DNA of 64,000 bases. Source: Sarea resinae. Its lineage: Eukaryota. The stretch lies in assembly GCA_026026165.1 (NCBI GenBank), contig JAPEUD010000058.1, positions 1 through 64,000 of the forward strand. The letters are read 5' to 3'. The notes below the pieces were generated by a model, which saw only the letters and a program-made list of their open reading frames with translations, had not been told where the DNA came from and ran no database searches. The translations under genes were made by a program, and so were the position numbers. Of this stretch, positions 30,295-35,595 are shown in pieces (position 1 is the first letter of the stretch; the number at the start of each line of letters is the position of its first letter).

Positions 30295-31791
30295 GATTGC
30301 AATGGATTCAATTCAATTGCAATGCGACTTGGGGAGATCTGCACAGGACAAGATATTGGTAATGAACGTGGTGCCGTCAAATGAGGGAATGGCAATGGGT
30401 GGAAGAGAAGTAGAGTATGTATGAAGATCAAGGAATCGAGATGCTGTTGGCTGCAGGTTGCTCTGACTGCGAGTCTTCGCGTCATGCAGGGAACGTAAGG
30501 TAAGGTGAGGTAGAGCGAACACGTGCTGCGAGACCTTTCACGTCGTTCGGACCTACTTGACAGACATCGAGCAGAATGGGAACCTGATGAAGACGGGAAG
30601 GCTGCCTGGACGGTGATCGGATGTCAAGGGAAGCTGCGCTATACCCTCTTGAAAGATCAAATTCAACTCGGAACACAGGGTGACCAGGCGGCTAAGTAAC
30701 AGAAGACTAACAAATGCATATCATCGAGAGAAGACCAAAGGTAGGCGCCTCCAACTATATAAGCACCTTCCTCTAGGTGTTGTCGAGATGCCGGTATGGC
30801 ATCCATGTGAAGCCCAAAATATGCTGTGAGGCAGCGAGGCAGCGAGGCAGCGAGGCAGCAAGGAAACTTCGCTTTCAACCGACCCGACGTACGACGTCAG
30901 CCAGATATGCTGGGTGCAAGTCCTACTCGTAACCTGCCTCTCTTTCTTCCTAGCTGGAGATCATGAAAACTGTAGACGTCTTGACTTCCCCTACCCCCGC
31001 AATCCATGTTTCCGCCATCGGCGTCTCACGCGGATCACGACACAAGACCAGATGCGGGGCACATCACCATGGTTTATATTCGCACGCGCCAGGAACGCCA
31101 TGGTCGGCACGGCTATGAGTTAGGCGTTCATGATAAAGCTCGAATAGGCAAAACAGAGTGGCATCCATGGGAGCACAGGGCCAAGATCCGAACATGAGAA
31201 TGTCTAGAATCAGATGAGCTGAAGACAGATCGGGAATAGAGGCTGATGGGTTAGGTCAAATAGAAGCTTCGAGGGACACTAGATTGAGGGGAACTGGGTG
31301 GATCGTGGAAGAGACGCTGCTCAGACCATCCTCCTTCGAGCCTGGTACCACCTTATAGGTGCGATGGTCTTGTGCAATGGAAAGCTCGGGCGGTATGCGG
31401 ATCTATTGCTCCCCTGATCCGGTGCAGGCATGGATGGCTGTGGACGGGAGCGTGCAGGACCAGAGATGAAGTTGAGAAAAGCGATCGGCAAGTTTATATT
31501 CTTAGTCAGCATTTGGCCCATGGAGCATGCGGTAGGTGGCGGAGACATCAGCATATTCCAAATAGATCCATATCCGCCGCGCTGTTCAATGTTACTCGCA
31601 AGAAGAAAGGAGGCTTGTGGAGAGATATCAGAATGGCGTTGCAGCTTCCAAATCGGAAACGCCTAGAGAGACAAAAGCAGTAGAGCAGTGAGGAGCATCA
31701 ACAGGGTATGCGGATATTTTTGGCTTAAACGTGTATTTTCTTTCTTTCTTTCTTTCTTTCTATGTTGGCAGAGATAGGTCCTCGACATAAT

Positions 31792-33132
31792 TTACCGCAC
31801 CACCGCGCCCGTCAAGCTCTTGACTGTGCATAAGCCGCCACTCTCCGTGACTAGCTTTCCTACATCCGCCTTTTTGGGCTCAGTCTCACCTGTACCCGCC
31901 AGCTGCGGGACGGCAGCAGCATCGAACCCAACCCCTAGATCCGGTGTAGTTGTGAATCCAGGTTGGAGGGTCTCCCAAATCTTCTTCTTGGGATTCAGTA
32001 CGGCTTCAGGTTGCCCAGCCCAACCCTCGAAATAGATTCTCTCGCCGGCTTTGGCGCCCGCCGGGGGCGTCACCAACTCAACAGGCCCCTTATGGCTATC
32101 CTCACCTTCTGCAACACGAGGGGAGGCGGCGAGAACCATTGCGGAAGACTTGATCCCTCGCATTGTCACGGGCTTGAGGTTGCATACAGCGACTATTTTG
32201 CGTCCTTGCATCTCCTCGAGTGGAACGAGTCCATTGAGGCCAGAACAGACTGTTCGCACAACCTGACCCTCGTATTCGGACGTATTGTCGGTCCCTGGGG
32301 CATCGCCGCATGCGATAGTTGAGACGTATAGCGAGTCGGCATTGGGATGGTTAATGGCTTTGAGGATGTGGCCGACACGAAGATCGATCAGGCAGGGCGA
32401 AAGAGGAGTTTCCTTCGGTGGTTGCTTCTGGGGTTTGGGGCCCTTCTCTTTCTTCGACTTTTTGCCCTCTGGTACCGCCGCGGTCTCACCGACTGCCACT
32501 GCTGCCATAGCGTCTGTCACCTTTTCAACCTTCTCCTTGACCTTCTCTTTTTTGCTCTTGCCTTGAGCTGCAGGCTGGCTTTCGCCCGCTGCAGCTGCCG
32601 CCGCTTTCTCCTTCTTCTTCCTCTCCTTTTCCTCCTTTGGATCGATGGGTTTGTGGACAAATTTCACATCGTCAACATCGATCGTGACCTTTTCCTCTTC
32701 ACTCGGCTTCAGGTCGAAGACCGGGGCGTTTTGTACAAAGTCAATGTATCGTACAATGTGATGGTAACCTTGCTCCCCGGTTCTTTCCTCTGAAGACCAC
32801 TTGGCCACGAACGGAGCGAGACGAGCGTAGAGCGCAACGTCGGCGATGGAGGGCTTGCTGCCCAAAAGGGTGGTCCGGGTAGAAAGGTGAGTATTGAGGC
32901 TGGAGAGACGCTCAATGCGCTTTGCTTCATCTTCAGGAGCGATGAAACGAGAAGAAGTGCTAAGCCATTGGCTTATCTCGACTTTTTCGTTGTCGGCGTA
33001 GGTCTGATTAGGGAAGATGGTGGTCGACAGCTGCACCAGGTCCGCTTCAGAAGGCGAGGCGGGAGCAACAGCCGAGTAGGACCGATGCAGAAGAGACGTG
33101 ACCGGGTCGAGGGTAAGAGCAGATGTCGACAT
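31792..33132 (-). CDS. ARC1: Arc1-like aminoacyl-tRNA synthetase cofactor (GST-like N-terminus, Lys-rich linker, EMAPII/OB tRNA-binding domain)
   Basis: IDLRVGHILKA..HPNADSLYV, RTVCSGL, CNLKPVTMRGIKS and LNPKKKIWE; first AUG at 33132. Confidence 0.93.
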   Translation of the reverse strand: MSTSALTLDPVTSLLHRSYSAVAPASPSEADLVQLSTTIFPNQTYADNEKVEISQWLSTSSRFIAPEDEAKRIERLSSLNTHLSTRTTLLGSKPSIADVALYARLAPFVAKWSSEERTGEQGYHHIVRYIDFVQNAPVFDLKPSEEEKVTIDVDDVKFVHKPIDPKEEKERKKKEKAAAAAAGESQPAAQGKSKKEKVKEKVEKVTDAMAAVAVGETAAVPEGKKSKKEKGPKPQKQPPKETPLSPCLIDLRVGHILKAINHPNADSLYVSTIACGDAPGTDNTSEYEGQVVRTVCSGLNGLVPLEEMQGRKIVAVCNLKPVTMRGIKSSAMVLAASPRVAEGEDSHKGPVELVTPPAGAKAGERIYFEGWAGQPEAVLNPKKKIWETLQPGFTTTPDLGVGFDAAAVPQLAGTGETEPKKADVGKLVTESGGLCTVKSLTGAVVR

Positions 33133-33822
33133 GCTGCGCAATCTAGGGAAGAGGACCCCTGGTTGATAATGCCTATGAAGAAGCGCCGAAGGAGCACTGT
33201 AGTGGGGTAGTCGTATACGCTTGCTCACGAGGCGAGGGACCGCCAATCGTAGAGGCAAAGCGCGAGGAAGGATAGAAGACAGCTTTGAGGTCTTCTTGAT
33301 CTGAAGACGATGAATTGGCTCTCTCTGGTGAAGGACGATATCGCCGTATAGGTTGTTGGTGGTGTGAGTCAAATCCTATCGAAATCACCCGGCTTCATAA
33401 TTTTCGCTTCTGGTCACTGTCCACTTACGTAGGTAGTAGATGCTTGACGCTGCAGATCCGTCTGTAAGCGAACCTTAGGGCTGCACCGGCAACACCGCAG
33501 ATGCAGAGTGAGGCTCGATGAATTCATCAGTATAAGATGCATGTTCACACAGTTATTTGTCGCCTGAGTCGGTTCTTTTGCACAGATCACTTAATTTACG
33601 AAGAAGGAACTGCATGACTCTCGGCCCTTGTTGGTAAAGATGCTTTATTATGCAATATCAAATTTGAAGAGCAGCCAATGAGCCCGAAACGTCATGTGGT
33701 TAATCGTAATGACCGCTCAATTGCAGAGATACAACCAAGGAAGATGAAGTAGTCACTTAGTGTGATTTCCTTACTCGAAAATATCTTATCTCGCGCTGGA
33801 CCGGCTTCTGACATGGCAATGA

Positions 33823-35595
33823 TCAGGTATATCCATTTTGGAGAGCGCCCCCCTGCTGACCAACTGGGCGCTTTCCCATACGTCCGCGGTAAGGAGAGAT
33901 TGTGCGAGGCTGGTCAAACACGATTGGCGTAGTCTGTCCTGTATCTCTCGCGCCTGTCTCCAGCGTCGGAGCGTGAACCCAAGTCTCTTCGGTGACCTTG
34001 ACGCCGTCAGGCCTCGTGTATTGTCTCGAGTCGCCTTCTTTGCCAGGAAACTGCCTTGCGGAGAATCTCCGAGGATCTTTGGTTGTAGGTTCGCCAGATG
34101 CGTTCTTAGAGGCTGTCTCAGCAAGCACCCAATTGCCTTGACGGCCTGGTGCTTCTTCTGCAAAGATTTCCACTAGACCACCCTCTTCGTCGAGAACATA
34201 ATGCTGGGTCGGAAGCACTTCAACGTCAACGATTGGCAAGATCCTATGAAAGACATCGTGGTTGTGCACTTCTCGTGTGACGACTTCTTCGCGGATATTG
34301 TGGATCTTCTTTGTGACTGTTTCATGAGTGACAGCTGAATTGACTAGTATTAGCAATCCTCCAAAGCCTTGTTTCGACATTCGGGTCTCACCTGGAGCAA
34401 TCCGCTCTATAACTTCGGTGTCGACAGAGTTCCCAAGGTCCACAATACCGGCCAACGAGGGCTTTTCGGTCGTGTGTCCTAGTTGCCTTCTCCTGCTATC
34501 AGGAGGAACTGTTTTGGGTCGGGGAGGCTCCGAATTTGAAGCTCTGTCCACGTCTAGCCAAGGAAGCTCTTTTACCGCAGCTGTCTGCTTTGAACCTGGT
34601 GGAGGTGGGAGTGGCTTGTCAGGAATGTTTGCGCGTCTTCTATTGCTCTCCGGCGAAGTCGACGTTGCGGATGCTGATTGGATCGAAGCTTCGTTCCTAA
34701 TATCTTTCCTTGGTATCGACTGCCTCCTACTAACATGGTGATCTTGAGAGGGTTTTTCTGGCGTCCTGGTTGGTGTAATACCAGGATTGCTATCTCTGTC
34801 AAGATTCGCCGCTATAAGCCTCCTTGGGAGGTTATCAGCTTCATTGGCCGGCTTTCTTCCAGTACCATCCTCGTTGTGTCTAGGTAGGGAATAATTCTTG
34901 TGTGGCGAGCGCTGTCTGACATTTTGCCTCTGTGGTTTGTATTGATCAGCAGACGAGTAGGTTGATGAAGTTGGGCCTTCTACGTCCGAGTTGGTAGCAC
35001 TGGGATCTGTAACGACATCTCCGTACGGATGTCTTTGAGGTTCACGTATCTGGAAGTTTTCGGTGCCGGCAGCTGCGTGTACATTAGCATACTGTCTTTG
35101 TCGGTGGGTGGTTTTATGGGACCGACCATTCCCATCATGCAAGCGCATATGTGAGAGCTCATTGGAGAGTCTGATGTATTCTCTTCCTCGGGCTTCACTG
35201 GGTGCGACGGCTACGTCGTTGTTAGGCCCATATGATGTGCTTGCATGATTTGTCCCGGGAGATGATGGACCATTCCCACTTGGATAAGACTTCGGACGCC
35301 CCGCGGCAGCTGCAGCAGCACGAGCAGCTGGCGATATCTCACTTTTGGAGGGATGATGCCCCCTTGGCGGGATCACAGCCTGATACCGTTCCTGGTGTTG
35401 GTCGGTCGTGGGTATCCTCCTGTTGCCATGCAACGGAAATTCGCCCGTTTCTGGACGCCGTGCCGGAGAAGTTGATTCGTAAGCGGAGGTTCGTAGGCCG
35501 GCCTCGTCACCAATGATGCCAGAGCGAGGAGCAACAGCAGTTTCTCTCTCTGGCTCCTTCTTCCTGAGGAAGAGCTTCTTCAGACGGCCCTCCAT
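33823..35595 (-). CDS. Hypothetical disordered protein with C-terminal His/Val/Thr-rich 'allergen-like' module; probable introns 35073-35126 and 34335-34391
   Basis: 590-codon ORF; two GT..CTAAT..CAG 3n introns; spliced APAVTHETV..REVHNHDVFHRILP motif. Confidence 0.8.
   Translation of the reverse strand: MEGRLKKLFLRKKEPERETAVAPRSGIIGDEAGLRTSAYESTSPARRPETGEFPLHGNRRIPTTDQHQERYQAVIPPRGHHPSKSEISPAARAAAAAAGRPKSYPSGNGPSSPGTNHASTSYGPNNDVAVAPSEARGREYIRLSNELSHMRLHDGNGRSHKTTHRQRQYANVHAAAGTENFQIREPQRHPYGDVVTDPSATNSDVEGPTSSTYSSADQYKPQRQNVRQRSPHKNYSLPRHNEDGTGRKPANEADNLPRRLIAANLDRDSNPGITPTRTPEKPSQDHHVSRRQSIPRKDIRNEASIQSASATSTSPESNRRRANIPDKPLPPPPGSKQTAAVKELPWLDVDRASNSEPPRPKTVPPDSRRRQLGHTTEKPSLAGIVDLGNSVDTEVIERIAPGETRMSKQGFGGLLILVNSAVTHETVTKKIHNIREEVVTREVHNHDVFHRILPIVDVEVLPTQHYVLDEEGGLVEIFAEEAPGRQGNWVLAETASKNASGEPTTKDPRRFSARQFPGKEGDSRQYTRPDGVKVTEETWVHAPTLETGARDTGQTTPIVFDQPRTISPYRGRMGKRPVGQQGGALQNGYT

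Follow-up and report, generated by a model that had tools for sequence, protein, structure and literature searches.

Does the ARC1 gene of the fungus Sarea resinae give rise to one protein or to two? The gene lies on the minus strand of contig JAPEUD010000058.1 (assembly GCA_026026165.1), of which positions 1 to 64,000 are considered here (the window, 64,000 nt in length; all positions are those of its forward strand). Its product is a member of the Arc1/AIMP1 (p43) family, and Arc1 is the cytosolic anchor that holds the methionyl- and glutamyl-tRNA synthetases (MetRS and GluRS). On the 5′ side of the first AUG the reading frame continues open, and the first-pass annotation of this DNA, made from the sequence alone, had proposed that an upstream in-frame CUG starts a longer form with a mitochondrial presequence. 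When the window is compared with orthologous loci, the start codon and its context are conserved, conservation is seen also at the level of the frame and of the codon, AUG is depleted, and the composition of the encoded extension is presequence-like. The reading that we prefer, with a probability of roughly three in four, is that leaky scanning yields a CUG-initiated, mitochondrially imported Arc1 beside the cytosolic AUG form.

The open frame upstream of ARC1

The frame 5′ of the ARC1 ATG is open and free of ATG codons over 81 codons (33375..33133, minus strand), up to a TAG at 33378..33376; the first-pass figure was about 80 open, AUG-free codons before the AUG at 33132. The CTG at 33282 is the sole in-frame CTG of this open stretch. 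Initiation there would add 50 residues with a net charge of +9, and translation confirms what had been said of this codon (in frame, A at −3) and of the extension that follows it (basic and acid-free; Table 1). An open run of 81 codons has, by our own estimate, a chance of roughly 2%, which is weak evidence alone. The window by itself could not separate chance from function; the comparative data do.

The comparison set

A protein search with the extended ARC1 product gave 2298 homologues. The best 120 of these are ARC1-type proteins of Lecanoromycetes, Dothideomycetes, and Xylonomycetes, with an identity of up to 73%. Metagenome contigs were then scanned with an alignment of 47 homologues: 371 stretches matched, 306 of them encode relatives, and the best 80 of the 306 were taken with their flanks as orthologous loci. 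Sixteen of the 80 were set aside because, owing to an intron or to truncation of the contig, the open frame 5′ of the first aligned block lacks an ATG. A main ATG could be defined in 64 loci and in the window; after 18 copies with an identity above 93% over 150 nt had been dropped, 47 non-redundant loci (46 loci and the window) remained. Poly(A) tails, which would mark records derived from cDNA, were not seen in the short metagenome contigs inspected. In the translations upstream of the N-terminal domain, a pattern K/T/N-L-[F/A/S]..R..L.R..R recurs 20–70 codons before the main Met in highly divergent loci.

Conservation of the start codon, its context, and its frame

A start-capable codon is present 20–71 codons 5′ of the main AUG in 45 of the 47 non-redundant loci, as CTG in 33, TTG in five, and ATG in seven. 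The non-AUG starts (n = 38) have A at −3 in 37 cases and G in one. Over all assigned starts, C occurs at −4 in 33/45 and A at −3 in 38/45, the common form being CAAG or CAAA followed by CTG. In the seven ATG variants, the base at −3 is T in four, G in two, and A in one, a mostly weak context. Leaky scanning predicts this pairing, in which a weak codon has a strong context and a strong codon a mostly weak one. At the main ATG, A is the usual base at −3 (42/45 loci). The remaining Leu codons inside the extensions are CTG or TTG in just 22% of cases, so that the near-constant CTG at the start does not reflect ordinary Leu codon usage.

The same result is obtained with scans of the leaders by motif and frame. 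In the 240 nt 5′ of the 47 main ATGs, a frame-blind scan for CA[AC][AG]CTG finds 28 occurrences versus 3.15 ± 1.82 in shuffled sequences (maximum 11 in 500 shuffles), and 26 of the 28 are in the ARC1 frame. A CTG or TTG that has A at −3, lies 15 or more codons from the main ATG, and is joined to it by an open frame occurs in frame 0 in 37 of the 47 loci versus seven and five in the other two frames. The length of the open frame was also compared between frame 0 and frames 1 and 2; it does not discriminate, since many leaders are open in more than one frame, and tests by motif and frame and by composition took its place.

Two of the 47 loci are without an assigned start. In L040 the contig ends 42 codons upstream; L041 is discussed below with the evidence on the other side. 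In the loci previously set aside, the same arrangement is found in 11 of 16 once exon 1 is located, with seven CTG (all with A at −3) and four ATG, and no ATG in any frame within the 11 recovered extensions. The others are L026, cut 28 codons 5′ of the main ATG, and L039, L056, L058, and L069, which have at most 26 nt of upstream sequence and are uninformative. Conservation in orthologous leaders, named in the first-pass annotation as a check on its proposal, thus turned out in its favor: a CTG, TTG, or ATG is followed by an Arg-rich extension, free or nearly free of acidic residues, in 45/47 loci and in 11/16 of those set aside.

Some loci depart from the common arrangement in other respects. 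L038 keeps a CAAA-CTG start and has no ATG at the usual place of the main start. Six loci (L036, L067, L016, L065, L072, and L079) form one sub-lineage with a mature N-terminus MASIHIDDK.. and often an intron after exon 1. There, the CUG is replaced by AUG and the extensions start with MNHT.. or MRH..; the base at −3 is A in three, G in two, and C in one. With such a mixed −3 base, the balance of isoforms may differ in this sub-lineage.

Signs of coding constraint in the extensions

The 45 extensions (4485 nt) contain one ATG in any frame, versus 35.4 ± 5.6 in 1000 shuffles (minimum 20). Read in frame 0 (1495 residues, no stops, open by selection), they have 0.5% acidic residues (D/E, 8 residues) and 17.9% K/R (R 15.6%), with 19.5% S/T and 15.1% L. 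The frame +1 of the same DNA has 6.0% D/E, 7.2% K/R, and 38 in-frame stops, and the frame +2 has 3.7% D/E, 8.7% K/R, and 18 in-frame stops. In frame 0 of the 40 codons 5′ of the start, the values are 6.1% D/E and 13.1% K/R with 65 in-frame stops, and in the first 40 residues of mature Arc1 (stops not counted) they are 12.6% D/E and 6.3% K/R. The net charge of the extension is between +3 and +12 in 45/45 loci; 37 extensions are without an acidic residue and eight have one.

Ten loci with 20-codon extensions can be compared without gaps. Their pairwise differences at codon positions 1/2/3 are 0.35/0.25/0.47 in the extension and 0.20/0.14/0.44 at the start of the main ORF, and about 0.6 at every position in the upstream flank. 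The bases at −6 (G), −4 (C), and −3 (A) are invariant in these ten loci, as is the TG of the start codon. The density of ATG 5′ of the start is low at first (0.22 per 100 nt over the nearest 30 nt) and increases gradually to 1.5–2.5 beyond about 90 nt. The depletion spans about 60–90 nt, which fits an mRNA leader beginning some tens of bases 5′ of the CUG.

Such invariance of the context and of the codon, the best-conserved bases of the 20-codon group, together with the hairpin predicted 3′ of the CUG in the window (see below), would also be expected if CAAR-CUG and the AUG-free leader acted in translational control, or as a promoter or RNA element, with the peptide irrelevant. A pure control element would not need the ARC1 frame, yet 26 of the 28 motifs are in it; nor would it exclude acidic codons from that frame alone or give substitutions in the order position 2 < 1 < 3. 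The replacement of CUG by ATG in some loci fits a real protein start. We consider control without a functional peptide highly improbable. A chance product of a pyrimidine-rich leader was also considered and was rejected on the comparative data. The sequence features of a non-AUG dual start are found here: an in-frame near-cognate codon in good context, a stop-free frame, an AUG-free interval, and conservation between species. From these comparisons, selection seems to have maintained the extension in four or more classes of filamentous ascomycetes.

Resemblance to mitochondrial presequences

The extensions are N-terminal, net positive, nearly acid-free, and rich in R, L, S/T, and A, as mitochondrial presequences are. 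The maximal helical hydrophobic moment exceeds that of their own shuffles in 32/45 extensions, with a mean z of 0.82. In the motif of the mitochondrial processing peptidase, arginine stands two or three residues before the cleavage site (−2 or −3). Relative to the main Met, next to which cleavage may occur, arginine is present at −2 in 23/45 loci and at −1 to −3 in 31/45; some of this signal could stem from the start context of that AUG.

A conserved start and a conserved coding frame do not identify the destination of the product. The extension might be made from the conserved CUG and serve outside mitochondria, as another basic signal (one that retains the protein in the nucleus or nucleolus, or attaches it to membranes) or as a degron by which a sub-pool of Arc1 is tuned, and the moderate amphipathicity (the mean z given above, with the low values listed in the next paragraph) is compatible with this. 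The composition is that of a classical presequence, with R far above K and abundant S/T, L, and A, and with eight acidic residues in 1495. The position is N-terminal, the length is 20–71 residues, and R often stands at −2 or −3 before the mature start. The clusters of K/R typical of nuclear signals were not seen on inspection of the extensions, and the human and yeast homologues have mitochondrial pools. A non-mitochondrial extension is, on this balance, unlikely. A peroxisomal signal of the PTS2 type was looked for by eye in stretches of the R-I-L-P-R-A-I-R-L type; these depart from the PTS2 consensus, and the candidate was set aside.

Several observations weigh against a mitochondrial, CUG-initiated form. 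The hydrophobic-moment z is at or below 0 in 13/45 extensions, and in the window the extension is proline-rich with a hydrophobic moment not above that of its own shuffles (z −0.25). At +4 the base is T in 28/45 assigned starts, not the optimal G. A purine at −3 in some of the ATG variants would favor the long form there. In L041 the corresponding Leu is encoded by CTT, which is not a start codon, and the upstream frame encodes acidic residues; this looks like a loss of the extension. The loci compared are phylogenetically related, and the counts are of non-independent events. Start positions were picked by eye with the motif as a guide, so that the codon tally is partly circular and only the frame and motif scans are unbiased.

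The ARC1 locus of Sarea resinae

The product of the ARC1 ORF has, as in the Arc1/AIMP1 (p43) family, an N-terminal GST-like Arc1p_N domain (Pfam PF21972 Arc1p_N_like, E 2.8e-17, residues 52–135) and a C-terminal, EMAPII-like tRNA-binding domain (PF01588 tRNA_bind, E 1.6e-21, residues 251–364). The nearest homologues are named ARC1, G4 quadruplex nucleic acid binding protein, or AIMP1. The positions of the elements are collected in Table 1.

Table 1. Elements of the ARC1 locus in the window
Element	Position	Strand	Remarks
ARC1/AIMP1-like ORF	31792..33132	minus	446 aa and stop; intron-less
Main AUG, cytosolic Arc1 form	33130..33132	minus	context AGC-ATG, A at −3
Putative mitochondrial presequence, 49 codons after CTG	33133..33279	minus	8 R, 1 K, no D/E
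Predicted RNA hairpin	33219..33263	minus	starts about 19 nt 3′ of CUG; coordinates from the dot-bracket of a 98-nt fold
Proposed non-AUG initiation codon CTG	33280..33282	minus	TCAAAG-CTG-TCT; A at −3, A at −4, T at +4
Further open codons 5′ of CTG (n = 31)	33283..33375	minus	contain D and E; unconserved in relatives
Possible 9-codon out-of-frame upstream ORF (ATG..TGA)	33369..33398	minus	116 nt 5′ of CUG; an upstream ORF only if the transcript starts further upstream

The interval between the CTG and the main ATG (147 nt) has no ATG in any frame, and the nearest ATG 5′ of the CTG, at 33398, is out of frame. The extension ends with ..PRLRS before the main Met, which places R at −2. Since the 31 open codons 5′ of the CTG include acidic ones and are unconserved, only the part from the CTG onward is meaningful; those 31 codons are most likely plain 5′ leader or promoter. 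On the 3′ side of the CUG, a hairpin is predicted with a minimum free energy of −24.2 kcal/mol; its z is −2.24, with an equal or better fold in 3 of 200 shuffles, which for a single sequence is no more than suggestive. According to this fold, the hairpin might promote pausing at the weak start.

For this fungus in particular, the CUG could be a relic or a chance occurrence in a pyrimidine-rich leader, with a transcript that starts 3′ of it and an AUG form only. The final 150 nt of the leader are 64% C+T, a bias that favors L, P, S, and R codons, and the feature is apparently lost in one relative (L041). RNA evidence was sought over 31400–34000 in one RNA run (0.11 share of words): contigs match at 31710–32293 and 33631–34000, and 32294–33630, including the 5′ part of ARC1 and the CUG region, is uncovered. 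These two matching contigs indicate that the source organism, or a close strain, was present in the RNA run. All elements of the relatives are kept in the window, namely a CTG with A at −3, an open frame, 147 nt free of ATG, 49 acid-free residues, and R at −2. The other two frames of the same leader DNA contain stops and acidic residues and are less presequence-like. A relic in Sarea resinae is in our view very unlikely.

The upstream neighbor of ARC1 is an ORF of 590 aa (33823–35595, minus strand) without a Pfam family at E ≤ 0.001. Its transcript appears to end near 33631, where the RNA contig stops, with an AATAAA at 33649–33644, and about 350 nt are left for the promoter and leader of ARC1 5′ of the CUG. 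On the other side of the gene, a (GAAA)n microsatellite (31736–31760, minus strand) lies about 30 nt past the ARC1 stop, in the 3′ untranslated region covered by the RNA contig 31710–32293; positions 31729–31771 were skipped as a repeat when the RNA reads were placed.

Taxonomic spread and gene models

Judged from the named relatives of the loci, the feature is present in Lecanoromycetes, Dothideomycetes, Leotiomycetes, and Sordariomycetes. The type with 20 codons (L080) matches Helotiales and other Leotiomycetes (Lachnellula, Phialocephala, Botrytis, Sclerotinia), and the type of L047 matches Sordariales, Xylariales, and Coniochaetales (Chaetomium, Podospora, Sordaria). The models of the named species mostly cover 95% (L080) and 91% (L047) of the extended queries, which means that they start at the main AUG and leave out the extension.

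Eighteen models clearly longer than 446 residues were retrieved, 16 extended at the N-terminus and two at the C-terminus. Several of the N-terminal extensions are basic and acid-poor: P0046 and P0068 (both beginning with Met a few codons before K-L-L-P-R-R), and P0110 (Periconia digitata). P0275 starts with MFSLRAAARP.. where the locus L075 reads LFSLRAARP.., that is, with Met exactly at the CTG-encoded Leu of the relatives. A partial model of Diplocarpon rosae reads through K-L-I-S-S-G-I-L-P-R-A-I-R. The ARC1 models P0018 and P0038, of lichen fungi, have C-terminal tails of 70–90 residues with a hydrophobic stretch at the end; these tails are probably read-through or fused models and not real variants.

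Proposed mechanism

The conserved elements are consistent with an ARC1 mRNA that has two in-frame starts and would begin 5′ of the CUG. A fraction of the scanning ribosomes would start at the CUG (33282), favored by the optimal A at −3, and produce a precursor with a 50-residue N-terminal presequence that is rich in R, L, and S and acid-free. The other ribosomes would pass through 147 AUG-free nucleotides to the AUG at 33132, in strong context, and make the known cytosolic Arc1. The long form would then enter mitochondria, where the processing peptidase probably cuts beside the conserved R-x-Met and leaves a near-copy of the cytosolic protein. As to its role there, the most economical guess is that it binds tRNA as a cofactor of some synthetase active in that compartment as well. 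As far as sequence comparison can tell, the fungi with the feature probably make such a second, mitochondrial form of Arc1.

Comparison with known systems

One of the closest systems is human p43/AIMP1, the Arc1 counterpart in the multisynthetase complex, where two in-frame AUGs give mitochondrial and cytoplasmic forms, the mitochondrial function being described as unknown (Shalak et al. 2009, cited from the review PMC4394549). Both proteins belong to a single family of tRNA-binding cofactors of synthetase complexes, both have a pair of in-frame starts on the same mRNA, and in both the longer form has an N-terminal mitochondrial targeting sequence (predicted in the fungal case). In the human gene, the upstream start is an AUG that adds nine residues, whereas the fungal CUG (TTG or ATG in some lineages) adds 20–71, and the human and fungal extensions have no sequence similarity. 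Yeast Arc1, the orthologous protein, was visualized in mitochondria for the first time with BiG Mito-Split-GFP (eLife 2025, PMC12707816). In the passages of that paper on the yeast protein, the targeting-signal score is low, no alternative start is found, and the signal persists from the canonical AUG (PMC12707816). In yeast a fraction of Arc1 was reported inside mitochondria, as is proposed for filamentous fungi. The yeast signal is internal or cryptic, whereas the form of the filamentous fungi would have its own conserved presequence at the N-terminus, translated from a non-AUG start. The first-pass annotation had called a mitochondrial Arc1 isoform unexpected. The isoform itself now has strong comparative evidence in its favor at the level of sequence; the surprise is less than was claimed, given the mitochondrial pools of human p43/AIMP1 and yeast Arc1.

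In yeast, GRS1 (UUG) and ALA1 (ACG) use non-AUG starts for the mitochondrial isoforms of their synthetases (PMC2909995), and in dual-targeted synthetases across fungi weak AUGs and near-cognate codons swap between lineages (PMC7049704). Likewise, an upstream in-frame near-cognate codon, leaky scanning to the main AUG, a targeting extension (putative here), and exchange between AUG and near-cognate codons characterize the ARC1 loci. Those genes encode enzymes that both compartments require, whereas Arc1 is a cofactor that lacks catalytic activity and has no established mitochondrial job. Within Pezizomycotina, cpc-1 has a conserved CUG, with UUG instead in a few species (PMC5487733). The Neurospora crassa gene belongs to the same clade and resembles ARC1 in its conserved CUG in near-optimal context (UUG in few), the absence of in-frame stops, and the coding-type conservation; it differs in that the product is a transcription factor with an extension of hundreds of codons, tied to control by upstream ORFs and not to targeting.

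Full-text literature searches, with subscription-only papers and supplements outside their scope, did not turn up an Arc1 of filamentous fungi described as non-AUG-initiated or as bearing a presequence. Term look-ups gave no such Arc1 form in PMC5487733, PMC7049704, PMC6582344, PMC11974929, and PMC10576190.

Implications for the Arc1/AIMP1 family

The proposed isoform is missing from most public gene models, and annotation from AUG only hides conserved dual-targeting signals in fungal genomes. The case would join the non-AUG-initiated mitochondrial isoforms, in a family whose mitochondrial pool is only now being recognized. If the preferred reading is true, it would complement the mitochondrial observations on human p43 and yeast Arc1, both of unknown function. 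One silent mutation of the CUG would then suffice to abolish the mitochondrial form alone in filamentous fungi, a genetic handle that separates the two pools.

The release of Arc1 is thought to govern the traffic of GluRS to mitochondria, according to passages in PMC4394549 and PMC7600831. A presequence-bearing Arc1 would mean that the cofactor itself has a selected mitochondrial role. Tentatively, as a reading that we find possible rather than probable, a mitochondrial pool of Arc1/AIMP1 could be an old, selected feature of opisthokonts, devoted to mitochondrial tRNA work and encoded in each lineage in its own way. Pezizomycotina would use a presequence initiated at CUG, human p43 an AUG further upstream, and the budding-yeast protein a signal hidden within its own sequence. 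If this broader reading holds, Arc1 might act in mitochondria as the tRNA-binding partner of an imported cytosolic synthetase, for example GluRS in the synthesis of mitochondrial Gln-tRNAGln, or as a carrier in tRNA import.

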